Of a DNA stretch of 64,000 nt, positions 10,691 through 54,071 are shown piece by piece (position 1 is the stretch's first letter; every line of letters starts with the position of its first letter). The notes under the pieces were generated by a model that worked only from the letters and a program-made list of their open reading frames with translations, was not told where the DNA came from and did no database searches. The DNA lies in contig JAZDLN010000051.1 in NCBI GenBank assembly GCA_043801965.1, positions 19,720 to 83,719 on the forward strand. The letters run 5' to 3'. A program made the position numbers and the translations under genes. This DNA comes from Candidatus Falkowbacteria bacterium. Its GTDB lineage: Bacteria > Patescibacteriota > Patescibacteriia > Patescibacteriales > UBA12075.

Positions 10691-10789
10691 GCCCTCACCC
10701 CGGCTCTCCCGAAGCGTCGGGATCGCCGACCCTCTCCCGCGATTTAAATCGCGGGAGAGGGTGACGAGCGGAGCGAGTCGGGTGAGGGC
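10691..10789. repeat. GC-rich nested palindromic element, gccctcaccc ... ggtgagggc. It overlaps and encodes the 3' end of mnmA.
   Basis: Perfect palindrome ccctctcccgcgatttaaatcgcgggagaggg nested inside outer gccctcaccc / ggtgagggc arms. On the minus strand it reads ATGCCCTCACCCGACTCGCTCCGCTCGTCACCCTCTCCCGCGATTTAA, giving MPSPDSLRSSPSPAI-stop. Confidence 0.7.
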
Positions 10790-12099
10790 ATAATAACCCC
10801 GCCCCCTAAAACCTCGTCCCCGTCATAAAACACGACCGATTGCCCCGGTGTTACCGCCCGCTGCGGTTCCTTGAGTTTAACGTTATATTCCTTAACTCCG
10901 CCCTCAAGCGCCACCGGAACACCCCTCCCCCTCCCACCCCGAATGATGGGCGGGTGCCGGAGCGGAGCGGAGGCGGGAGGGGTATTGGGGAGAGGTAGAG
11001 ACGCGACTTCGCATCCCACCGCCTTATGCCGGTACCGGATCACGGCCTCGCATTTTAAAGGCATCTCCGGCTCGAATCCGGAAACCCAATTGATTTCAGA
11101 GACGATAAAATTATCGCGGAAAAGCGCCGGGTCGTTTGCGTCGGATACGACGTATAAAGTATTGGTTTTATAGTCCGTGCCCGCGACATAATAAGGCCCG
11201 GTGCCGCCAATCTCGACTCCCCGCCTCTGCCCGAGCGTATAAAGCGGCAAACCCTGATGCTGTCCGATTACTTTGCCCGCACCCTCTCGCGCCGCCGGAA
11301 CACCCCTCCCCGTCCCTCCCCTAATTAGGGGAGGGTGCTGAAGCGGAGCGGAGGCAGGAGGGGTGCTAGATGCAAGAGCCACTATCGGCCCGGGCTCCAT
11401 TTTAAGATATTTTTTCAGATACTCGTTATGCTCCAAAATCTTCCCCTCGCTGTTTAAAAAACAAACATCCTGGCTTTCGCCCGTTAAATGCGGCAATCCC
11501 GCCTCCGCCGCTATTTTCCTGATTTCATCCTTAGTGTATTCTCCGAGCGGAAACAGTATTTTTTTCAGTTGATCCTGCGTTAAAGTATATAAAAAATACG
11601 ATTGGTCTTTATTAGTATCTATACCCCTAAACAAAGCACATAATTCATTTTTCATGACATAATGCCCGGTAGAGAGATAATCCGCGCCTAATTCGTCAGC
11701 CACGCGTAAAAGCTCCCCGAATTTAATAAGCCGGTTGCACCTAACGCATGGATTTGGCGTTATCCCCTCTTGATAACTTTTTAAAAAATAATCTATTACC
11801 TCTTTCCGGAATCTGACGGTCAGATTGACCGGATAGAATCTTATGCCGAGCTTCTTAGCCACCTGCCGGGCCGCCGCCTCGCTTTTATCGTTCGGAAACC
11901 CCAGGCGCATGAATATGCCGGTTACGTCATAACCCTCTTTACGCAACAAAAAAGCCGCCGTGGAAGAATCTACCCCCCCGGACAAGGCTACAACAACACG
12001 AGATTTTTTTCCCGCACCGCCAGCTTGCCCCGCATAATCCCGAAGGGATTTGTGCGGGGACGTGGCAACTATTACTTTTTTATTTTTTGCATTTTTCAT
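10744..12099 (-). CDS. mnmA: tRNA-specific 2-thiouridylase MnmA. It carries two in-frame repeat-element insertions and an element-derived C-terminal tail.
   Basis: PP-loop SGGVDSS and motifs CVRCNRLIKF and DYLSTGHY. The 451 aa length exceeds the usual roughly 360 aa because of insertions TPPASAPLQHPPLIRGGTGRGVPAAREG and TPPASAPLRHPPIIRGGRGRGVPVALEG. Confidence 0.9.
   Translation of the reverse strand: MKNAKNKKVIVATSPHKSLRDYAGQAGGAGKKSRVVVALSGGVDSSTAAFLLRKEGYDVTGIFMRLGFPNDKSEAAARQVAKKLGIRFYPVNLTVRFRKEVIDYFLKSYQEGITPNPCVRCNRLIKFGELLRVADELGADYLSTGHYVMKNELCALFRGIDTNKDQSYFLYTLTQDQLKKILFPLGEYTKDEIRKIAAEAGLPHLTGESQDVCFLNSEGKILEHNEYLKKYLKMEPGPIVALASSTPPASAPLQHPPLIRGGTGRGVPAAREGAGKVIGQHQGLPLYTLGQRRGVEIGGTGPYYVAGTDYKTNTLYVVSDANDPALFRDNFIVSEINWVSGFEPEMPLKCEAVIRYRHKAVGCEVASLPLPNTPPASAPLRHPPIIRGGRGRGVPVALEGGVKEYNVKLKEPQRAVTPGQSVVFYDGDEVLGGGVIMPSPDSLRSSPSPAI
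10920..10984. repeat. In-frame nested-palindromic element copy (diverged) inside mnmA.
   Basis: cacccctccccctcccaccccgaatgatgggcgggtgccggagcggagcggaggcgggaggggta. Outer IR cacccctcc / ggaggggt(g/a). Confidence 0.65.
11301..11365. repeat. In-frame nested-palindromic element copy inside mnmA.
   Basis: cacccctccccgtccctcccctaattaggggagggtgctgaagcggagcggaggcaggaggggtg. Inner perfect palindrome ccctcccctaattaggggaggg. Confidence 0.75.
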
Positions 12100-12114: not shown

Positions 12115-12161
12115 CTCTCCCGTGAGCGACGCCAGCCGGGGGAGAGGGGCGGGGGTGAGGG
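12115..12161. repeat. GC-rich palindromic element with GGGGGTGAGGG tail, just upstream of mnmA.
   Basis: ctctcccgtgagcgacgccagccgggggagaggggcgggggtgaggg. Confidence 0.5.
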
Positions 12162-12188
12162 AAAAACAAAAAGCGCGCCAGCGCCTTC

Positions 12189-13670: not shown

Positions 13671-13720
13671 GCCCTCACCCTGACCCTCTCCCTGGACTGC
13701 GGTGTCCAGGGCGAGGGAAC
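13671..13720. repeat. GC-rich palindromic element, reverse orientation.
   Basis: gccctcaccctgaccctctccctggactgcggtgtccagggcgagggaac. Confidence 0.5.
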
Positions 13721-13817
13721 TATAGTAAGATGTTGTGGAATTTTCCAATGTCAAAAATATTAAATTAGAAAGAGAGTTGAACAAAACAATGCAAAAAATC
13801 TAAACGTATAAAGTAAT

Positions 13818-13869
13818 CTCCCCTCTCCCGCGGCGCCGCAGCCGCGGGAGAGGGGCTGGGGGTGAGGGC
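13818..13869. repeat. GC-rich palindromic element.
   Basis: ctcccctctcccgcggcgccgcagccgcgggagaggggctgggggtgagggc. Confidence 0.55.
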
Positions 13870-19047: not shown

Positions 19048-19698
19048 CTATCCCCAGAACCCCAGTATCTTTAAAATTCCCGCCTTGATAGCGCCGATGA
19101 AACCGGACCAGACAGCCGCGATTCCCCGGTTATCATCCGATCGATCGTCTTCCGCGGCGTTGCCGGCATCATCCGCGCAATCGCTTTCTTCGAGTGCGCA
19201 CAGCCCGTTCCCGGCCGGTTCTTCCGGCTCTTCCCAAAGCTCGCCCAAGACCGGCTCAGCAATACCCCTCCCCGTCCCTCCCCTAATTAGGGGAGGGTGC
19301 TGGAGCGAAGCGGAGGCGGGAGGGGTGTCTGAAATTTCCGCCTCCGCTTTATCGCTATCGGCGTTAACCCGGTTCTCTATTTTTAATTGAACGCTGTCTT
19401 CCGTTTCTTTCTCTATCTTTACATCAGTCACCTTTGTTCCGTTTATTTCGGTCTCTATCTCGATCTCTCCGCGCGTTTTCCCCTCGACAACGGCGCCGTT
19501 TTTCGCCGTATTGCCGCCGCTTGAGGCGGATGATTTTATATTATTGGTTATCTTTGCGCCCCCGGAATCGTCATAATAATAAACCTCGTCATATTCGGCC
19601 AGCAAATCATCGAGGTTAAAGGCCCGCGTCCCGGCCGGCAGAAACAGCATCGACGCTATGATAATATAATTAATTTTTTTAAAATATTTTACGGACAT
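19048..19698 (-). CDS. Secreted acidic hypothetical protein containing an in-frame palindromic-element insertion.
   Basis: Signal peptide. Internal DTPPASASLQHPPLIRGGTGRGIAEP segment encoded by the element at 19264-19327. Confidence 0.5.
   Translation of the reverse strand: MSVKYFKKINYIIIASMLFLPAGTRAFNLDDLLAEYDEVYYYDDSGGAKITNNIKSSASSGGNTAKNGAVVEGKTRGEIEIETEINGTKVTDVKIEKETEDSVQLKIENRVNADSDKAEAEISDTPPASASLQHPPLIRGGTGRGIAEPVLGELWEEPEEPAGNGLCALEESDCADDAGNAAEDDRSDDNRGIAAVWSGFIGAIKAGILKILGFWG
19264..19327. repeat. In-frame nested-palindromic element copy.
   Basis: tacccctccccgtccctcccctaattaggggagggtgctggagcgaagcggaggcgggaggggtg. Confidence 0.75.
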
Positions 19699-19953: not shown

Positions 19954-19980
19954 GTAGAGACGAGTATGCCTCGTCTCTAC
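19954..19980. repeat. GTAGAGACG-armed palindrome.
   Basis: gtagagacgagtatgcctcgtctctac. Confidence 0.6.
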
Positions 19981-20013: not shown

Positions 20014-21162
20014 TTAGAATCTTATCCGATTGATAATGTGGTTCACCCTATTGACAATGCGCGTATCGCTGTTTGACGGACCAGTGGTAATAATGCCGCC
20101 CCAGCCCGCAGCGCCGCCGGCTCCGCCGGCTCCGCCGATATTATCGTCTTCCGAACCGGTTATCGATCCGCCGTTGCCGGCATCGGTTCCATCGCCGCCA
20201 TCGGCTATGTTATCGCCGGTCAGGGCGCTGGTATTGGCAGTATTGACGAGAGTGGCTGTGTCCAGGTTATTGATCACTATATTTTCCGTGCTGGAGGCCA
20301 AATCATTTTCGCAATCGCAGGGAGCTATTCTTGTCCTGTCGACATTAACTCTGTTTATGATCCTGGAAGCGGCAGTCGCGGCTCCGGTCGTGATATTGCC
20401 GCCGTCTCCGCCCGCGCCGCCCGCGCCGCCCGCGCCGCCGGTATTAGCGTCATCGGACTCGGTTACATTACCGCCGTGTCCGGCCGCGCCGCCCGCGCCG
20501 CCGTTAGCGGTATTATTACCGGTAGTAGCGAGGGTAGTAACAGTATTGGTGATAACGGCGGTTTTGGTATTCGTTACTTCTATGGACAGATCCCTTACTC
20601 CACCATTATCATCTTCATCATCCCCGTCTTCGTCCGGGCAGACCTCATCATACTCGATCGAAACCGCGTCCACGTCGTAAGCGTCCGCTGTGTCTCCGTG
20701 CAGGTCCGGATCGGTCGTATCGACCAGCCTGACGTACTGGACGCACTGGTCCACGTTAAAAGTGGTTACGCCGTCGCCTTCGCCTTCGTCATTATTGGCC
20801 TCGCCGATAAAATTAAAATTAATTCCGTCATCGCTCACGTACACATCGGCTGTTTCCAGGGGAAATGCTCCGCCGGTAATCTCGTAAGTCGCCAAGGTAA
20901 GTACGCCGGATGCTTTGACCGGGAATTCGAGGGTCAGGTCGCCGCCGAAACCTAAAGAAACGAAATCGCCGTCGTTCGGACCTAAGGCGTCAGTCGGATC
21001 GCTCCTTGAAGCGCTAACCGGATCGCCATTCTTCTGATCGCCCTGGTTGAATTCATCGACGCTGTCCGCGAAATCAAGAACAGCCGCGTCCGCGTAGAAC
21101 GTGGACATGAACGGCGATAAAGCCAACATAAGCCCTAAAACAAAAATAAATGTTTTCTTCAT
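20014..21162 (-). CDS. Secreted Gly/Asp-rich repeat protein.
   Basis: Signal peptide MKKTFIFVLGLMLALSPFMSTFYADA. Two internal copies of a GGAGGAGGAGG-containing module. No sorting signal. Confidence 0.5.
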   Translation of the reverse strand: MKKTFIFVLGLMLALSPFMSTFYADAAVLDFADSVDEFNQGDQKNGDPVSASRSDPTDALGPNDGDFVSLGFGGDLTLEFPVKASGVLTLATYEITGGAFPLETADVYVSDDGINFNFIGEANNDEGEGDGVTTFNVDQCVQYVRLVDTTDPDLHGDTADAYDVDAVSIEYDEVCPDEDGDDEDDNGGVRDLSIEVTNTKTAVITNTVTTLATTGNNTANGGAGGAAGHGGNVTESDDANTGGAGGAGGAGGDGGNITTGAATAASRIINRVNVDRTRIAPCDCENDLASSTENIVINNLDTATLVNTANTSALTGDNIADGGDGTDAGNGGSITGSEDDNIGGAGGAGGAAGWGGIITTGPSNSDTRIVNRVNHIINRIRF

Positions 21163-24060: not shown

Positions 24061-24161
24061 CCATCCCCTCCAGGGCGCGATGTCCGGGGAGGTTGGACTA
24101 AAATGTTCAATATCTCCCTTCTCCCTGCCAATAGGCAGGGAGAAGGGTTGGGGATGAGGGC
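24061..24161. repeat. Two adjacent GC-rich palindromic elements; the second has a GGGGATGAGGGC tail.
   Basis: tctcccttctccctgccaataggcagggagaagggttggggatgagggc. Confidence 0.5.
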
Positions 24162-28940: not shown

Positions 28941-29076
28941 TACCCTCCTTCTTATATTTTTTATGTAAAGCCACAGCTTATATTTACTTATACGCTTAAA
29001 AAAGGATTTTGTTACACTAAATATTTTTTTTCTCGCCGAATTTCCCACAAAAAAACCCTCTGTGGAGACGCCCACG

Positions 29077-29104
29077 GTAGAGACGAGGCATGCCTCGTCT
29101 CTAC
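29077..29104. repeat. GTAGAGACG-armed perfect 28 bp palindrome.
   Basis: gtagagacgaggcatgcctcgtctctac. Confidence 0.65.
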
Positions 29105-29137
29105 GGGGGGTATTTAGGTGTTTGGTTTCCGCCCGCC

Positions 29138-29165
29138 GTAGAGACGCGATTAATCGCGTCTCTAC
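29138..29165. repeat. GTAGAGACG-armed perfect 28 bp palindrome with a different centre.
   Basis: gtagagacgcgattaatcgcgtctctac. Confidence 0.65.
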
Positions 29166-29207: not shown

Positions 29208-29267
29208 TTCCCCCCTCCCGGCGGGGATGCCTGCCTGCCGGCAGGCAGGGACAGGAGGGGGTCAGAA
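29208..29267. repeat. GC-rich nested palindromic element.
   Basis: ccttcccccctcccggcggggatgcctgcctgccggcaggcagggacaggagggggtcag. Confidence 0.5.
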
Positions 29268-29276
29268 GTCCGGCAA

Positions 29277-29316
29277 CAAAAAAAACACCTCCGGAAATCC
29301 CGGAGGTGTTTTTAAA
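29277..29316 (-). terminator. Rho-independent terminator of the 29329-33417 gene (bidirectional hairpin).
   Basis: cacctccgg-aaat-cccggaggtg with flanking A-run and T-run. Confidence 0.6.
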
Positions 29317-29328
29317 TATCTGAACTAT

Positions 29329-32300
29329 TTAAGCTTTTACCACTCCGAATTTAAGGACCTTGGCTATCCCAAATAAACCGAGAACGGACAGGACAAGGAT
29401 TAAAAGTTCGCTCTCGTCAAAACCGGTTTCAGCCAGGACTTTAACGTTCTCGACCGTCAGATCGGCCGTTGCGCTCGCGTCAGCGGCGCTATTATCGGCT
29501 TTAACCGTGGCGGTATTGGCGTAAACCTTGGCCGCGGCGGTTTTATCGATATTTACGGTATAGCTTACTTCTTTCTTTCCGCCTTGGGCGATATCGCCTA
29601 ATTCCCAGGTGCGGGTCAGGCCTTCCGCGTCAGAAAACATGAGGCCAGCTTCCATAGTATCGGATAATACCACGTTTTTTGCGTCAACGTTATCCGTATT
29701 AGTAACGGTTATGGTATATTTTACGCCGGTATCGCCCGGATTGGCTTTAACCCGGTCAACGGTCTTTGTAAGCGAGAGGGTTACGCTCTCTTCGCCCAAA
29801 ACGGACACTGAGATCGGTTCCGGGTTCTCTACGGGCGCTGATCCGGCTTCTCCGGTCTTGTATTCTACCTGCTTGCCGTAGATTTCCGGCGAAGCCGAAG
29901 ACATAGGCCGGAAATAATAGGTCGTGTTCGGGGTAAGACCGGTTATGGTTACCGAGTGGCCGGTTACGTGCTCTTCGTCAAGTTCGGTTGACCACTGGTA
30001 GCCGTAATTCGGGGCCGATTCGCCGGAAACGTCGGGGTGGCTCACCGTATCGTAGATAACGCGCGAAGTGCCGGCTTTGTTGGTCAGCCAAGTGATAGTA
30101 ATAAAATCGCCGCTTAAATTTCCGGCCCGTTCGTTATAGATGGTAAGCTCAGAGGGCAACCAGCCGCTTCCGCCCTGATTATATTCACAGCTCTGGTCGT
30201 CGTTAGTAGCGCCGGAATTATAGTTAGTAGCCGAAGAGTCCATACAGCCGTAAACCGGTTCAAAATGATTCAGGAGATACACTTCTCGGAAATTCGGATA
30301 TTGTTCCCCATCACCGATGGTCACTTCATGCGCTTTCTGAGGATATGTTTGCGTCCAACCGGCCTGTGCATCTTCGGTAATGGTATAGGTGCCGTAAGGT
30401 ACGGTAAAGTCAACACAACCGTGATTCCGGCTGTCATCGCCCTCGGTCGCACCGCTGTCGTTATGTCCGTTGTCGCCGGCAATATTCATGGTCCAACCGC
30501 CGAGAGGGTGTAGTATTCTCTGCGCGGTCGCAAGAACCGGTTTGACTATAAGATCCCGTAATTTCGCCAATACAGAATCGGCCTGCGTGTATTCCGGATA
30601 ATCCGGCTCGCCGTTATTATCGGTATCCTCGTATTTGCAGACCCGGATCGTGCCGGTCGGTTCGTCTCCTTCGTCTTCTTTATTGCCGAAATAATAAGTA
30701 ATATCGCCGTTAACAGTCACGTCTTCACAAACGACCATCAAGGGCACCTCCCCGCCGTTGGTCCAGTCAAAGGGCGTATTTCCCGGGTCGGTATTGGTCC
30801 ATCCGTCCTGCGTATATTCGCAGACCGTATATTCGCCGTAAGGCAGATTACTGAAAGTGAATTTGCCTTCGGAATCGGTAATGGTTTCCGGACCCTCATA
30901 CTGGTAATGATCGCCGCTGATAAATACTTTCCAACCCGGAATATAGGGTTCTTCCCCGTGTTCGCCGTTTTCATCTACATCGTTATATTTATAAATCGTG
31001 ATGGAACCGGTCGGGTCTTCCGGGGTGGTATAGTGATTCAGGAAGTAAACGATTGGGGCGGAATTATCTCCGTCCACCGTCACTGTCGCCGAACCATCCT
31101 CTTCTAAAACCGCATTACCGTCAACTCCGGTCTGTTCCCAATTATCTATATCCTCTTCCTCGGAAATATTATAAGTCCCGTAATCAACTTCGTTAATAGT
31201 GACACAACCGGTTTCGCCCGCCTGATAAGTCGTATCGTTCATGTAAAAATGCCAAAGCGGGTCGGTGACAGCCGGTTCATTCTCGTTCAATGCCCCGTTG
31301 CCGTCCAGATCGCTGTATTTGCAGATCGTGATAGAGCCAATCGGTTCGGCTGGGCATTCGGTTAATTCTACTTTAACATCATCAAGCAAGGTTCCGTAAG
31401 AATCCGGCGTTCCCAGATCTGTAAATGCAAGATCAGCGGAATCGCTGTCGGCGGTCATGGTATATTCATATAAAGTCCAGGCGGTATCGGTATTACCGGA
31501 ACCGTCGGCGCTGACCGTTTCGTCAATCGTTCCGAACTTAACACCCAGGCTGTTGTTACTCGAATCAGTATCCGGCCGTGGCGAGAATTTAAAAGTAAGT
31601 TTATAGACCGCTCCGGGAACAGTGGTAACGCTTTGAGAAATAACCACTGAGGCCGCTTCATTGCCCTCAACTGGATAATCTGTATCAAGCTCGGCCCATT
31701 GACTGCCTTCGCCCGCGGTCCATTCCAGAGAGACGGTTTGTAGTTCTAAATTAGCCGGTTCCGGCGCGCCTTCTTCGGGCGCGACCCAGGAAACGTCCCA
31801 GCCTAAACCGTCGGTACCGGACGGATAAATCTGCCACTTGCCGTCATGCTCGTTAACGGTCGGATTTTCAAAGCCGCCGTTCATTATCTTAACAAAACCG
31901 GTTTCGCAGGCCGGTTCGTCCGCTACGCAAGCGCAGCTAACGCAGGTTTCTCCGGTACCGCAAGCGGAACCGTCGCAATCCTCGCCCTCTTCAATGATTT
32001 GATTGCCGCAGACCGGATCGCTAGCGTCGCAAACGTCGCCCTTGCCGTCTTTGTCAGCATCCGCCTGGTTGGCATTTGATGTTAGTGGACAATTATCGCA
32101 AACGTTGCCGATGCCATCGCCATCCGAATCAGCCTGGTTGGCATTGGAGCTATTCGGGCAATTATCGCAGGCATCGCCCACGCCGTCCTGATCGCTGTCT
32201 TCCTGGCCGGAGTTGGCGGCCCATGGGCAGTTATCGCAGTCATCCGGAACGCCGTCGGCATCCATATCCTGCGCATCGTCTGTGCCAGGACACATATCGC

Positions 32301-33417
32301 AGGCATTGCCGGCGCCGTCCTTATCGGCATCCGCCTGATCCGGATTAGCCGTGCTAGGGCAATTATCCTCGTTATCGCAGAAACCGTCGTCATCACTATC
32401 CGTACAAGAGCAAGTTAAATCTGATCCATCGCAATCCTGATCTATGCTGTCGCCGCAAATTTCAGAGGCGGCAGGATTAATATTGCTGTTATCATCATTG
32501 CAGTCAATACCGCTGGTGGTTTCCGCGTATCCTTTCGGAATGCTGCTGCCATAGCAGATAGAAATCTTCCCGTCCGAACCGGCCGTATCGGCATCGTAAT
32601 AATAACCGTCGTTATCGCCGTCATACCAATAGCTATCCACTTGCCATGAATCAGGGTTAGAGTCGTTGCAGTCAACTGGCCCGCATTGTCCGCCCTCTAC
32701 CGAATAACCATCTTGGTCGTTATCGGTGCACGCCAATGCAATACTTACCCCATCAACGCGAAAGTATTCAGAGCTAGGATTATCGTCATTTGTATCATCG
32801 TCGCATTTGTTATCCCAATTAGTAAACGAACAACCTGAGTTATTTTTATACCGAAGTGTAAATTTCTGATTATCAACATATTCCGATGGAAGATTAACTG
32901 CTTGTAACGCGCTCCAACCCTCATCATTGTTATTGTTATTATCATCTAGTTCGTGCGAAGCTACTTCGTGCCAACCATCACCAGCGGTACAGGAATCCCC
33001 CTGGTGCACATAAACTTTTCCGTATTCGTTGTTTTCAGCATCAGCATCACCACGCCAATAGTACTTTAAAACTAAACCGGAATAACCCCTTGCGTCAATT
33101 TTTGCGCAAATCCATTCATTATCACCAATTTTTGCGAAACGTCCGCCATCTGGGCTAGCGCCATCTGGTTCACTGCCCGGCTTTTTGGCAACCGTATATC
33201 CGTTTGATTCATCCCAATTATCAATATTATTATCATCGTTTCCCGCTCCGAATCCATCTGACCACGGCAACCCAGCCGCCTCTACTCCGGTCCCAACAAA
33301 AAACACGCCCATAAGTGACATGTTGAAGATTAATACTGATAAGCTAAAGACGCTTAAAAGTTTATAGCCGCTCTTCCTGAGGCGCTCCAGGCGATAATGC
33401 CCGATGTTTTTGTGCAT
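29329..33417 (-). CDS. Giant cell-wall-anchored (LAETG) adhesin with thrombospondin type-3 Ca-binding repeats, three prealbumin-like repeats, an FN3-like domain and a DUF11 domain.
   Basis: DSDQDGVGDACDNCP / DADKDGKGDVCD TSP3-type repeats. Repeats GSITICKY ... GTYNISEEE ... W. The C-terminus ends LAETGFDESELLILVLSVLGLFGIAKVLKFGVVKA. Confidence 0.75.
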   Translation of the reverse strand: MHKNIGHYRLERLRKSGYKLLSVFSLSVLIFNMSLMGVFFVGTGVEAAGLPWSDGFGAGNDDNNIDNWDESNGYTVAKKPGSEPDGASPDGGRFAKIGDNEWICAKIDARGYSGLVLKYYWRGDADAENNEYGKVYVHQGDSCTAGDGWHEVASHELDDNNNNNDEGWSALQAVNLPSEYVDNQKFTLRYKNNSGCSFTNWDNKCDDDTNDDNPSSEYFRVDGVSIALACTDNDQDGYSVEGGQCGPVDCNDSNPDSWQVDSYWYDGDNDGYYYDADTAGSDGKISICYGSSIPKGYAETTSGIDCNDDNSNINPAASEICGDSIDQDCDGSDLTCSCTDSDDDGFCDNEDNCPSTANPDQADADKDGAGNACDMCPGTDDAQDMDADGVPDDCDNCPWAANSGQEDSDQDGVGDACDNCPNSSNANQADSDGDGIGNVCDNCPLTSNANQADADKDGKGDVCDASDPVCGNQIIEEGEDCDGSACGTGETCVSCACVADEPACETGFVKIMNGGFENPTVNEHDGKWQIYPSGTDGLGWDVSWVAPEEGAPEPANLELQTVSLEWTAGEGSQWAELDTDYPVEGNEAASVVISQSVTTVPGAVYKLTFKFSPRPDTDSSNNSLGVKFGTIDETVSADGSGNTDTAWTLYEYTMTADSDSADLAFTDLGTPDSYGTLLDDVKVELTECPAEPIGSITICKYSDLDGNGALNENEPAVTDPLWHFYMNDTTYQAGETGCVTINEVDYGTYNISEEEDIDNWEQTGVDGNAVLEEDGSATVTVDGDNSAPIVYFLNHYTTPEDPTGSITIYKYNDVDENGEHGEEPYIPGWKVFISGDHYQYEGPETITDSEGKFTFSNLPYGEYTVCEYTQDGWTNTDPGNTPFDWTNGGEVPLMVVCEDVTVNGDITYYFGNKEDEGDEPTGTIRVCKYEDTDNNGEPDYPEYTQADSVLAKLRDLIVKPVLATAQRILHPLGGWTMNIAGDNGHNDSGATEGDDSRNHGCVDFTVPYGTYTITEDAQAGWTQTYPQKAHEVTIGDGEQYPNFREVYLLNHFEPVYGCMDSSATNYNSGATNDDQSCEYNQGGSGWLPSELTIYNERAGNLSGDFITITWLTNKAGTSRVIYDTVSHPDVSGESAPNYGYQWSTELDEEHVTGHSVTITGLTPNTTYYFRPMSSASPEIYGKQVEYKTGEAGSAPVENPEPISVSVLGEESVTLSLTKTVDRVKANPGDTGVKYTITVTNTDNVDAKNVVLSDTMEAGLMFSDAEGLTRTWELGDIAQGGKKEVSYTVNIDKTAAAKVYANTATVKADNSAADASATADLTVENVKVLAETGFDESELLILVLSVLGLFGIAKVLKFGVVKA

Positions 33418-42395: not shown

Positions 42396-42465
42396 CAGAC
42401 GACGGAATGAATAATAAAATTTACATTCTATTTTCTGTTCACTGCTTTCTAAAATCCAATAATAT

Positions 42466-42876
42466 CAGGACGGGTTATAAGCCGGATTCTGTTCCCGTCG
42501 AATGACGGGAGATGGCCATTTATCTTGGCTTATCGTTGCCGATAAGCTCGTGCGAACCACTTTTCCCACGTGGAAGCGAAGCTTCTTTACGTGGTTTGTT
42601 CTTGCTCCAGGCAGGGTTTACCGCGAACACGCCGTTACCGGCGGTCGAAGCTTGTAGCCTTTTGACTCGAGATCAAAAAACACCAAGCGACTTTTCACTT
42701 TTCCCCCGAGGAAAGCAAAGCTTTCTTTTCGGGGTAGTATTGTCTCTGTGGCACTTTCCCTGGGGTTACCCCCGGTCGTCGTTAGCGACTGCCATGACAT
42801 CGGCATAAAACCGAAGGGAGTCCGGACTTTCCTCTCAAAGTCCTTGAGGAGTTTGAGCGGCCATCGGCCCATCCTG
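42466..42876 (-). ncRNA. rnpB: RNase P RNA (bacterial type A).
   Basis: Minus strand contains GAGGAAAGTCCGGACTCC (P4 5' strand), GTGCCACAGAGACAA, GGTAAACCCTGCCTGGAGCAAGAACAAA and ACAGAATCCGGCTTATAACC (P4 3' strand). P1 pairs CAGGATGGG with CCCGTCCTG. Track ORFs 42512-42808(+) and 42618-42935(-) are spurious. Ends approximate. Confidence 0.85.
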
Positions 42877-49031: not shown

Positions 49032-49060
49032 GTAGAGACGTAGCAATGCTACGTCTCTAT
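49032..49060. repeat. GTAGAGACG-armed palindrome.
   Basis: gtagagacgtagcaatgctacgtctctat. Confidence 0.6.
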
Positions 49061-49087: not shown

Positions 49088-51208
49088 TCATTCCACTACC
49101 CCCGCCCCCCTCGCGATATCGTCGTCCTCGAGCTTGGTGGTTTTGGCCGGAGTGGTAAAATCCAGCTCCGCTTCCGTTTCGCTGTCCCTGGCCTTAACGT
49201 TAGTACCGGGCAGGAGTACCATGATAGTATTCTTATCCTCCTCTCGCGGCGTGATTTTAAGGCTCCATTCGGCGCTCGAATCATAAACCGTAACGGGCAG
49301 GCGCCCGATATCCCAAACCACTTCATGGGTACCTTCCAAATACTTAACGGCGCCGGCGGTTGATCTTTCTTTGCCGTCCCAGCTTACGTAACTCGGGAGT
49401 TTGACCGATATCCTAAGATCCGAAAGTTCATGCAGGTTATTGTTGAGCTTCCAATAAACTTTATAGCTCGTGGTTTCCCCGGTTTTAGGCGGATGCGGCC
49501 CGGTGCCGACGGGAATATTGTCTTCGTTAAAATACCGCGCCGACTCCTCGAGTTTAAGATCGCTGTTTATCCTTATAAGAACCGTGTTGCTGCGATTATC
49601 GCTGTCTTCGGACTTCTCGGCCCCTTCTTCGATCTCCCCGACGCTGAATTGCGCGTAACTTTCCGCCTGGTATTTTTTACCCGGATCTATCGCGCCGACG
49701 TTAAGGATATCTATGGAAAAATCGATCGTGCCCTCGGCGTGCTTGGCGATCGCCTCCAGGGCGGGTATTTCTTCCTTGCTCCAGGTGATTGTGTTCCCCT
49801 TTTCTTTCCCCTTGTTTTCGTCTTTTAAGCTCGCCCAATCGAGGAAATCGCTGTCCAATACGGCCATGATCACGACGTCTTTCATGTCGGTCTCGCCGCT
49901 GTTCTTGTAGACGATCGAATAGTTCAGGGTTTGGCCGAAATCAGCCCCCTGGTTATCCCGGGCCCCGTTCACTATCATGGTCAGATTAAGATCGCTCTTC
50001 ATCACCTCGAAATTAAGCTTTGTCTCGTGGAATTTTATGTAACGTCCGGAAACTGAACCGGCGGTGGCGGTAGCGGTGGCGTTATCGACGATATTTTTTT
50101 CGAAGTAAACGACGATATCCTGCTTATCGGATTTTTTTTCAGTGAACTTTATCCTGATCGGCAATATTTTTTCTTCCGTTCCGAGGCCCTCGATCTCCCA
50201 GACCCCCGGTCTTATCATCTTGGCCGCCGCCAACTTTCCCTTATCCTCTTCCTTCGGAGCCGGAACGCCGATCTCGATATTTTCCTGCGGCTCGACCGTT
50301 AGGCGGAAATTGCCGATATAATTCTTTTCGTTCGGATTAAGCCTGATCGTGACCTCGTCCTCCTGCCCGATAAGGGCGCTCGCGATATAATCATAATCGA
50401 TCTCGATACCGATATCGTTTATCATGGTCGACGACGTGGTTTCTTTCCTGAATTCGGAGGAAAAATTTTCCGGCGAATACGTCAAGTCGGCGGTTATTAT
50501 CCCCCGGTCGTTCTCGAGCCCGACCATCATGCCCTTGATCTTTATCTTGCCCGTCTCCCGCGCTCCGACCGCTCCTATGTTCCACGATCCGATCTTATCG
50601 TTCTTTGCGTTGCCGCTTTCCGGATAGCTGTCCAGAAAGATGAAATTATCCGGAAATTTAGCTTCTATCCGGACGTTCCTGATATTGATATTGCTCGAGT
50701 TCTTATAATGGATCGAATAAAAAAATTCTTCTCCGACCGCCACTTCGCTTTTGCCTTCGATAGAAAATTCGACCGCGGTCGCGTCCGAACCGCCTCCTAA
50801 ATAAAAATACCGGTAAGCCCCGTAAGCCGCGCCGGCTATTCCTCCGGTCATAAAAATAAATAAAAAAAGCCAAAAAAAGAAGCCGCGGCGCTTCTTGATG
50901 TCCATTTTTTTAACGTCGATCATCTTGCCGTTATTATCTTCGTAAATTTCGTGCAGGCTCTCATCGATTTCCTCCTCCATTTCCCGGCTGATACCCTCTT
51001 CTCCGCCCTGGTCCCTTAAGGAGATCACTCCGTCCTGGCCGTAAGAATCACGGCTTCCGTACGCGGACTCTTCGACTAATTCCTCGAAACTCTCGACTTC
51101 CTCGTCGGTGGGCATCGGCCGCCGGATAAACTCCGCCAGCCCGGATTTTTTAGAATTTTTTATGACAATACTTTCGTCTAGATTGCTTTTGCTCCTGGGT
51201 TTTGCCAT
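49088..51208 (-). CDS. Type-II membrane-anchored protein with an acidic cytoplasmic N-terminus and extracellular DUF11-like beta-repeat domains.
   Basis: Single TM FFFWLFLFIFMTGGIAGAAYGAY. Repeated N.S..T..NV.I.A segments typical of conserved-repeat (DUF11) domains. Confidence 0.45.
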   Translation of the reverse strand: MAKPRSKSNLDESIVIKNSKKSGLAEFIRRPMPTDEEVESFEELVEESAYGSRDSYGQDGVISLRDQGGEEGISREMEEEIDESLHEIYEDNNGKMIDVKKMDIKKRRGFFFWLFLFIFMTGGIAGAAYGAYRYFYLGGGSDATAVEFSIEGKSEVAVGEEFFYSIHYKNSSNINIRNVRIEAKFPDNFIFLDSYPESGNAKNDKIGSWNIGAVGARETGKIKIKGMMVGLENDRGIITADLTYSPENFSSEFRKETTSSTMINDIGIEIDYDYIASALIGQEDEVTIRLNPNEKNYIGNFRLTVEPQENIEIGVPAPKEEDKGKLAAAKMIRPGVWEIEGLGTEEKILPIRIKFTEKKSDKQDIVVYFEKNIVDNATATATAGSVSGRYIKFHETKLNFEVMKSDLNLTMIVNGARDNQGADFGQTLNYSIVYKNSGETDMKDVVIMAVLDSDFLDWASLKDENKGKEKGNTITWSKEEIPALEAIAKHAEGTIDFSIDILNVGAIDPGKKYQAESYAQFSVGEIEEGAEKSEDSDNRSNTVLIRINSDLKLEESARYFNEDNIPVGTGPHPPKTGETTSYKVYWKLNNNLHELSDLRISVKLPSYVSWDGKERSTAGAVKYLEGTHEVVWDIGRLPVTVYDSSAEWSLKITPREEDKNTIMVLLPGTNVKARDSETEAELDFTTPAKTTKLEDDDIARGAGVVE

Positions 51209-52993: not shown

Positions 52994-53023
52994 GCTTAAT
53001 ACTAAATACTATATACTAAATAC
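52994..53023. repeat. TACTAAATAC direct-repeat element supplying the stop codon of dus.
   Basis: cttaatactaaatactatatactaaatactt, near-identical to 12189-12225. Confidence 0.55.
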
Positions 53024-54071
53024 TTTTCAAATACTCCCCAAACACACCCTCAATCTCCTTAAACGTATTAACGCGCACCAATTCTCTTCTTAACTCTTTC
53101 GCCCCGGATAGCCCGGCCGCGTAAGCGCAAAGCTGGCCGCGCATCTCTACTATCCCCCGCCCGCCTTTAAGGCCCTCGGCAAGCCGGGCGTGTTCTAAGG
53201 CGATTTTAAATACCGCCCGGGGAGAGCGCGCAAGGCTCTGTCCGGTGCGCACGGCCTTGAATATCCACGGCCGCCCCAAAGCGCCGCGCGCGATCCCGAC
53301 TCCGTCGGCTCCGGTTTCGGCTAATAATTCCTCAACACAACTTTTGACGTCAGCTCCCCTCGCCCGCGGCGCCGCGACACCCCTCCCCGTCCCTCCCCTA
53401 ATTAGGGGAGGGTGGCGAAGCGGAGCGGAGCTGGGAGGGGTAACGGTAACGCCAACCCCTCCATTCGCCAGAATCACGCCCCCGAAATGATCGCGGGCTT
53501 TTTTTATTATTCCTGTGTCGATCGTCCCGGCAAAACCCTGCTTTAGGGTCCGGCCGTGGATCATGATAGCGGAAATATTCAAGTCTTTAATAAATTCCAA
53601 AAAATCGATCAAACCGGTTCTGTTGACCCTGGTCCGGGTTTTGATCGAAACCGGCAAATTCGTGTTATCGATCGTGCTTTCGATTATCTTCCGCGCCAGC
53701 GGCATATTATCCATAAGTACCGCTCCCGCGCCCTGTTTGGCGACTTTCTTTACCGGACAGCCGAAGTTAATATCGATCCCGTCCGGACCGATCTTATCCG
53801 AAATTAGGCGCGCGGCCGCCGCGAAGTGATCCGGTTTCGCACCGAAAAGCTGGACTACGTACGGACGTTCTACCGGATCGAACTTAAGCATCCCTAAAGT
53901 TTTAACCGGATCATAAACCAGGGCAGTCGCGCTGGCCATCTCGGAATAAACGACGTCCGCGCCGAATTTTTTGCAAATCCGGCGCATGGCGCTGTCCGTA
54001 TAGCCCGCCATCGGCGCCAGGGCGTAGATCGGCCGTCCCCGTTTTTTTAATTTTTCCCAAAAATTACGCAT
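53016..54071 (-). CDS. dus: tRNA-dihydrouridine synthase with an in-frame repeat-element insertion.
   Basis: LAPMAGYTDSAMRRI ... DINFGCP ... GADGVGIARGALGRPWIF. Insertion TPPSSAPLRHPPLIRGGTGRGVAAPRARG splits the conserved ANGG / ADV...TGADGV region. Confidence 0.85.
   Translation of the reverse strand: MRNFWEKLKKRGRPIYALAPMAGYTDSAMRRICKKFGADVVYSEMASATALVYDPVKTLGMLKFDPVERPYVVQLFGAKPDHFAAAARLISDKIGPDGIDINFGCPVKKVAKQGAGAVLMDNMPLARKIIESTIDNTNLPVSIKTRTRVNRTGLIDFLEFIKDLNISAIMIHGRTLKQGFAGTIDTGIIKKARDHFGGVILANGGVGVTVTPPSSAPLRHPPLIRGGTGRGVAAPRARGADVKSCVEELLAETGADGVGIARGALGRPWIFKAVRTGQSLARSPRAVFKIALEHARLAEGLKGGRGIVEMRGQLCAYAAGLSGAKELRRELVRVNTFKEIEGVFGEYLKSI
53388..53441. repeat. In-frame nested-palindromic element copy inside dus.
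   Basis: cacccctccccgtccctcccctaattaggggagggtggcgaagcggagcggagctgggaggggt. Confidence 0.75.

Follow-up and report, generated by a model that had tools for sequence, protein, structure and literature searches.

Intergenic palindromes in a Candidatus Falkowbacteria contig are probable double-foot REPs of the RAYT group 4 type

Palindromes and their surroundings in the window

The window analysed here is a 64,000-nt stretch of a Candidatus Falkowbacteria contig (JAZDLN010000051.1), and its genes lie almost all on the minus strand. Four intact copies of a short palindrome, all of them intergenic, are found at 19954-19980 (copy 1), 29077-29104 (copy 2), 29138-29165 (copy 3) and 49032-49060 (copy 4); the coordinates and sequences given for them in the original prediction are all correct. 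Copies 2 and 3 are perfect 28-nt palindromes with a foot at either end (a double foot) and the centres AGGCATGCCT and CGATTAATCG, respectively. Copy 1 also has a double foot and reads GTAGAGACG-AGTATGCCT-CGTCTCTAC, but its centre pairs imperfectly, leaving an 11-bp stem and a 5-nt loop, so that the self-complementarity noted earlier for every copy is perfect in copies 2 and 3 and incomplete in copy 1. Copy 4 is 29 nt long and has the centre TAGCAATGCTA. The outer 9-bp arm, first described as invariant, is so in copies 1 to 3, all of which end in CTAC, while the 3’ foot of copy 4 has decayed to CTAT, a single mismatch. Three different centre types are present within 30 kb of the window.

Two further traces of the element, additional to those predicted originally, bring the tally for the 64 kb to four intact copies, one decayed copy and one half-copy. 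The half-copy, GTGGAGACGCCCACG (29062-29076, plus strand), is 15 nt long, carries a GT[AG]G foot and AGACG, and directly abuts copy 2. The decayed copy, GTAGAGACGCGACTTCGCATCCCAC (10995-11019, plus strand), no longer folds; it lies in frame within mnmA, on the minus strand of which it is translated as CEVASL.

The arm GTAGAGACG has eight exact matches in the window, counting both strands, where 0.19 would be expected from dinucleotide-preserving shuffles of the window (none of 100 shuffles reached eight), and the full pattern GTAGAGACG-N(4-16)-CGTCTCTAC has three matches against 0.00 expected. Folded as single-stranded DNA, all four copies give -10.5 to -13.1 kcal/mol, with z-scores of -6.3 to -7.2 against shuffles. 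Their stems of 11-12 bp and loops of 3-5 nt lie within the ranges that define REPs (7-20 bp and 2-5 nt); a 5’ GTAG, which fits the GT[AG]G foot of the class, stands at offset 0 from the stem in four of four copies, and the 3’ foot of copies 1 to 3 fits C[TC]AC. When the 64 kb were searched generically for perfect hairpins preceded by GT[AG]G, these four elements were the sole result.

Other kinds of element were considered as well. The spacing of the copies is not regular, as it would be for CRISPR repeats, and a search of the window against Rfam gave no covariance-model match at the palindromes, the sole match at gathering score being a bacterial class A RNase P RNA (42462-42876, minus strand; 206.7 bits). 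The foot contains CGTCTC, the recognition site of BsmBI/Esp3I, and nothing was found that links restriction-modification to the element.

Each of the four copies follows shortly after the 3’ end of a minus-strand gene. The distance from the stop codon is 33 nt for copy 1 (ORF at 20014-21162, minus strand), 163-225 nt for copies 2 and 3 (ORF at 29329-33417, minus strand) and 27 nt for copy 4 (a DUF11 gene at 49088-51208, minus strand). Since just 11 nt separate the end of copy 4 from the predicted start codon of the next gene, tgt, there is no room for a tgt promoter, and either tgt is co-transcribed with the DUF11 gene through the hairpin or its true start lies further downstream.

These positions, together with the high stability of the hairpins, could suggest that the elements are primarily host-selected terminators or 3’-end stem-loops that stabilise mRNA, and REPs of E. 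coli are known to stabilise upstream mRNA. At the same time, neither a T-run nor a terminator-like score was found at any of the four copies, and a canonical intrinsic terminator (29281-29313, minus strand; a 15-bp stem and a T-run, after a 1362-aa DUF11/TSP3 gene) already stands between the upstream giant gene and copies 2 and 3, separate from the palindromes. Moreover, related copies lie in frame inside coding regions, both in mnmA of the window and in a REP-associated tyrosine transposase (RAYT) gene elsewhere. Position relative to gene boundaries, proposed originally as a means of deciding between terminator and operator, places the copies 3’ of genes and away from promoters, with neither a T-run nor a terminator-like score. 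We consider a primary role in termination or mRNA stabilisation improbable; a host-level effect on mRNA stability is possible.

Large DUF11, SpaA or TSP3-repeat proteins are encoded around copies 2 to 4, and in that respect the original description of the palindromes as neighbours of surface-protein genes was fair. The association itself looks incidental, since the flanks are unrelated in 120 loci from other genomes, and clustering of the ORFs in at least 120 such loci found no surface-protein family that recurs beside the palindrome.

Two other repeat families were seen in the same window. The second repeat, ACACCCCTCCCCGTCCCTCCCCTAATTAGGGGAGGGTGCTGGAGCGGAGCGGAGGCGGGAGGGGT, is about 63-76 nt long, occurs at 10908-10983, 11289-11364, 19264-19326 and 53377-53442, and forms a nested hairpin with an RNA minimum free energy of -45 to -50 kcal/mol. 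Its four insertions are in frame and in the same orientation in minus-strand ORFs, always encoding TPPASAPL(Q/R)HPP(L/I)IRGG(T/R)GRGV, and in this they resemble the in-frame insertions of Rickettsia palindromic elements. The host genes are mnmA (twice), a gene whose sequence reads as having a hydrophobic, signal-like N-terminus, and an ORF at 53016-54071. In mnmA (10744-12099, minus strand; 451 aa) the insertions fall at aa 246-271 and 373-398, alongside the decayed palindrome; they lie between Pfam domains and leave the frame intact. This repeat may be more unusual than the REPs. The third family, CCC(C/T)TCTCCC-variable centre-GGGAGA(G/A)GGG, often followed by GGGTGAGGG, was seen at 10730-10762, 12140-12170, 13684-13730, 13821-13855, 24116-24147 and 29209-29265; like the palindromes it combines conserved arms with variable centres, but it lacks the GTAG head.

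A shared foot and compensating centres in other genomes

When one genome per species was scanned for GTAGAGACG-N(6-14)-CGTCTCTAC, at least 120 stretches were found, from more than a dozen phyla, that share the same 9-nt foot and have a variable, paired centre. Among the matches listed, the hosts include Bacteroidota (Bacteroidales, Flavobacterium, Hymenobacter, Parabacteroides), Cyanobacteria (Nostoc, Calothrix and others), Chloroflexota, Acidobacteriota, Ignavibacteria, Rhodothermales, Balneolia, Geobacter, Desulfuromonas, Planctomycetes, Spirochaetes, Zixibacteria, Omnitrophota, Patescibacteria, Binatia and a Methylococcales MAG. The 9-nt foot is under strong primary-sequence constraint across phyla, and its identity over such a range would be unexpected for terminators.

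The 130 copies in the listed loci have unrelated flanks and differing but palindromic centres. The sequence of copy 3 recurs identically in loci from Nostoc, Scytonematopsis and Methylococcales and within the RAYT-like gene of locus L138. Most copies are extragenic: an open frame of 150 codons or more spans 33% of them, compared with 87% of random positions drawn from the same loci (p = 9e-20). Arms without inverted partners had been named beforehand as evidence that would count against a palindrome family, and almost all of the “lone” arms in the listed loci proved to belong to hairpins with one-sided decay of the outer bases, so this objection fails.

The centres vary in a way that keeps them paired. 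In the three centre layers beside the foot, 83-98% of positions form Watson-Crick pairs, with all four pair types represented; pairing is looser in the apical layers, and sliding the register lowers the paired share to 26-55%. Comparison of 135 distinct 28-mers from many genomes identified double-sided changes at the three foot-adjacent centre pairs in 41, 62 and 69 sequences, with 3-6 sequences unpaired at each, although many of these “compensatory” changes would be inherited and not independent, because copying would amplify centre subfamilies. For these 28-mers the covariation score was 0.319, as against 0.106 in shuffles, none of 500 of which reached 0.319. The compensatory covariation first read from the copies of the window thus holds at scale, and the paired, covarying centres support the hairpin as the object of selection. 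The further claim that selection acts on structure rather than on primary sequence is right for the centre but not for the strongly constrained foot.

In the window (29062-29076) and in loci L030 (4324-4372), L065 (1403-1463), L089 (864-927), L111 (1457-1514) and L017 (2702-2745), a complete copy is immediately preceded by tandem direct repeats of the hairpin’s 5’ half (the foot plus half of the centre, with a period of 15-18 nt), pointing to slippage or to an aborted round of cleavage and rejoining at the hairpin apex.

The same double-foot palindrome was also seen in at least 120 predicted viral stretches from IMG/VR contigs (L201-L320), where CGATTAATCG and CAAAATCTTG are the commonest centres in the stretches listed. 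No RAYT-like ORF was detected in the 1.06 Mb of these at least 120 stretches. They may come from prophages in hosts that carry REPs, may be contigs misclassified as viral, or may be vehicles by which the element spreads.

A recurring Y1 HUH partner enzyme

All-against-all clustering of the ORFs from the at least 120 palindrome loci listed yielded a single recurring family, of about 180-240 aa, that adjoins or lies around the palindrome in 6 of 120 listed loci, all six from Bacteroidota or Balneolia; the other clusters were generic (e.g. ABC ATPases). The proteins share an HUH motif, MPNHLHxII, and the motif Y(H/N)DHIIR...YIxNNP. They match NCBIfam NF047646 (REP-associated tyrosine transposase) with E-values of 1e-9 to 1e-16, at scores below its curated cutoff (37-58 bits against 80), and Pfam Y1_Tnp weakly, again below cutoff. 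The family profile has a sole match in the PDB, to 4ER8 (E. coli TnpA_REP; E 4.7e-5). By these sequence matches, the partner protein is a distant relative of the REP-associated tyrosine transposases.

The reciprocal test, in which 80 metagenome loci were picked by similarity to this protein alone, leads back to the hairpin: AGACG-N-CGTCT hairpins were present in 52 of the 80 loci and absent from 28, and in 52 of the 52 a hairpin lies inside the gene or at most 300 bp from it, with hairpins on both sides of many of the RAYT-like genes. The 72 full-length genes have the HUH variants NHIH (28), NHVH (20), NHFH (11) and NHLH (6) and in most cases YIxNNP as the Y motif; WQ is visible in the six seed proteins. 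An in-frame hairpin lies between the HUH and Tyr motifs in 39 of these 72 genes, about 280-340 nt from the start (for example L138 at 10287, L159 at 678 and L200 at 473), and the in-gene copy has the same centre as the flanking copies in 16 of 19 cases. The shared centres and the nearly fixed in-gene place suggest concerted evolution or a functional role.

The hairpins beside RAYT-like genes have GTAG on both sides (48), on one side (58) or on neither (16), and the single-foot copies are often inverted doublets with their GTAG heads outward. The enzymes are more alike within a centre type (51.4% protein identity) than between types (45.6%), a difference that none of 2000 permutations reached, and this relation between centre type and RAYT relatedness fits co-inheritance or co-evolution of the enzyme and the upper stem. 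The 64-kb window itself contains no RAYT-like ORF (hmmsearch at E<=1 over all stop-free stretches of at least 40 aa), and no close relative of the window was found among the RAYT-bearing metagenome loci. The best match to the window in these comparisons is an Omnitrophota MAG, in which two syntenic ORFs show weak similarity (37% and 27% identity).

The recurrence of this enzyme bears on whether the palindrome is an operator, that is, a duplex bound by a dimeric transcription factor at two GTAGAGACG half-sites. An inverted pair of invariant 9-bp half-sites, set apart by a fairly constant 9-11 bp, would suit such a site, but a spacer between half-sites needs no self-complementarity, and yet this one is 83-98% paired, with all four pair types, in the three layers beside the foot. 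The copies lie 3’ of genes or inside ORFs and not at promoters, and single-foot versions are as common as double-foot ones near RAYT genes (58 versus 48). The original prediction proposed a search for a co-varying DNA-binding protein: DNA-binding regulators recur nowhere in the neighbourhoods of the listed loci, and the protein that does recur there is the Y1 HUH enzyme. Because this partner is an enzyme of single-stranded DNA and not a transcription factor, because the copies lie 3’ of genes and because relatives occur in coding regions, we regard a dimeric-protein site as highly unlikely.

Similarly, the palindromes could be not free-standing REPs but what is left of a larger mobile element, or its ends (an IS200/IS605 end, a MITE or a PATE, for example), given that IS200/IS605 TnpA is the sister family of the associated enzymes and that two other repeat families share the window. 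Similarity stops at the foot, however, the flanks of the 130 copies being unrelated; neither tnpB nor an IS-like ORF family recurs beside any copy in the listed loci, and RAYT-like genes occur once per locus, flanked by the hairpins alone. An origin as element ends is therefore hardly to be expected.

The perfect palindromy might also be an unselected mutational by-product, either of intrastrand template switching, by which quasi-palindromes are corrected, or of a central deletion in an inverted REP dimer. Inverted single-foot dimers do flank many RAYT genes (e.g. L121, L122 and L188), and the tandem half-copies show that local rearrangement takes place at these sites. Such events would account for the double foot, but not for the paired and diverse stems of single-foot REPs, and they leave unexplained why centre type tracks RAYT lineage. 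We think it very unlikely that palindromy is no more than such a by-product, a reading that is in any case compatible with a REP/RAYT pair and not opposed to it.

Catalogued double-foot REPs and a proposed mode of action

The combination of hairpin and partner enzyme corresponds to a family that has already been described. Quentin et al. 2018 (BMC Genomics 19:475, PMC6006769) define a TnpA_REP subclass 2.4, the same group that Bertels et al. 2017 call RAYT group 4, with the signature NH[IFV]H, WQ and YIxNNP, a mean length of 194 aa and a distribution over Cyanobacteria, Bacteroidetes and various phyla. The motifs measured here (NHIH/NHVH/NHFH/NHLH and YIxNNP) agree with that signature. Bertels et al. 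2017 place group 4 in 61 species and 17 classes and find it common in Cyanobacteria, Chlorobia and Caldilineae. In Table S1 of PMC6006769, the REP consensus GTAGAGACGCACGGCCGTGCGTCTCTAC of Chloroflexus aggregans (ACL24330.1) is assigned to subclass 2.4 with double foot = T, and 15 entries contain GTAGAGACG, besides near variants such as GTAGAGACAAGGCATGCCTTGTCTCTAC.

The window elements resemble these REPs in their 5’ GTAG and 3’ CTAC feet, 12-bp perfect stem, 4-nt loop and length of 28 nt; the published consensus GTAGAGACGCACGGCCGTGCGTCTCTAC has the same foot, and subclass 2.4 REPs are likewise found in frame inside the RAYT gene. Considering these agreements, we conclude that the four palindromes are very probably double-foot REPs of TnpA_REP subclass 2.4/RAYT group 4. 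Unlike a subclass 2.4 REPtron, the window itself has no RAYT gene, so that the link to its own genome is indirect and runs through identity with the REPs of RAYT-bearing genomes; we infer that a RAYT is present in that genome. Since Table S1 of PMC6006769 lists GTAGAGACGCACGGCCGTGCGTCTCTAC and 15 entries with GTAGAGACG, the family is already catalogued down to its consensus: the element is known, and the finding is genuine and ordinary. The centre shared by in-gene and flanking REPs is not mentioned in the available text of Quentin et al. 2018. A literature search for the strings GTAGAGACG and CGTCTCTAC returned cloning and primer matches only, and the string was not found in the text or supplements searched of Di Nocera et al. 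2013, who treat GTAG-/CGTC-tagged REPs.

Three known systems help to place the elements. Like the REP/BIME elements of E. coli (RAYT group 2), they are extragenic hairpins with GTAG at the foot, lie 3’ of genes and are linked to a Y1 HUH partner. The palindrome of an E. coli REP is imperfect, has a bulge and one foot only, and is strand-specific (REP versus iREP), whereas the window elements are mostly perfect palindromes with a foot on both strands and present the same substrate on either strand.

Integron attC sites carry RYYYAAC and GTTRRRY cores; no such core was seen on reading the four copies, and the window elements form no cassette array. The attC enzyme is the tyrosine recombinase IntI, while that of REPs is a Y1 HUH enzyme. 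In architecture the two are analogous: the ends are conserved, the middle varies but stays paired, and it is the folded single strand of DNA that is recognised, a likeness discussed in PMC8266576.

REPINs, in turn, are non-autonomous, REP-derived units tied to a single-copy RAYT (Bertels and Rainey 2011). The inverted single-foot doublets that flank many subclass-2.4-type RAYT genes are like REPINs, but the window copies are singletons, and the pair at 29077-29165 is a cluster. This pair was considered as a REPIN and rejected, its centres being different and its arms merely 74% complementary over 34 nt.

How such elements may work can be proposed by analogy. At its base the hairpin has the guide tetranucleotide GTAG and AGACG, and because the 3’ end (CGTCT-CTAC) is the exact reverse complement, both DNA strands give the same GTAG-headed hairpin. 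A monomeric Y1 HUH tyrosine endonuclease encoded elsewhere would bind this hairpin when the DNA becomes single-stranded, reading the foot base-specifically while the upper stem need merely be paired, and would cleave and rejoin the DNA nearby, by which the elements would be copied or maintained. Such a model could account for an invariant foot, for a centre that is free to change but compensates, and for centre subfamilies amplified by copying; the double foot would make the two strands equivalent substrates. For group 4 this mechanism is modelled on the REP/RAYT pairs of groups 2 and 3, the groups for which we found published in vitro binding and cleavage, none having been found for group 4. 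With RAYTs of other groups, GTAG is required for cleavage in vitro and GTAG mutations abolish it; a stem mismatch nearly abolishes cleavage, and complementary stem swaps have mild effects (PMC8266576).

In the matches listed, one and the same 9-nt foot, GTAGAGACG, is shared by Bacteroidota, Cyanobacteria, Chloroflexota, Acidobacteriota and candidate phyla, although REPs are usually described as species-specific. It is conceivable, though we give it a small chance, that the recognition code of subclass 2.4 RAYTs is single, ancient and universal, with a strand-symmetric substrate that can be presented by either strand, and that the in-gene hairpin is functional (in autoregulation or as a master copy) and not a tolerated insertion.

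In annotation, the hairpins should be entered as RAYT group 4-type REPs; labels such as operator, terminator or new regulatory RNA do not suit them. From their presence, a subclass 2.4 RAYT gene is predicted to lie elsewhere in the genome. The wider family, with its symmetric, two-footed substrate and a foot conserved across phyla, merits biochemistry.
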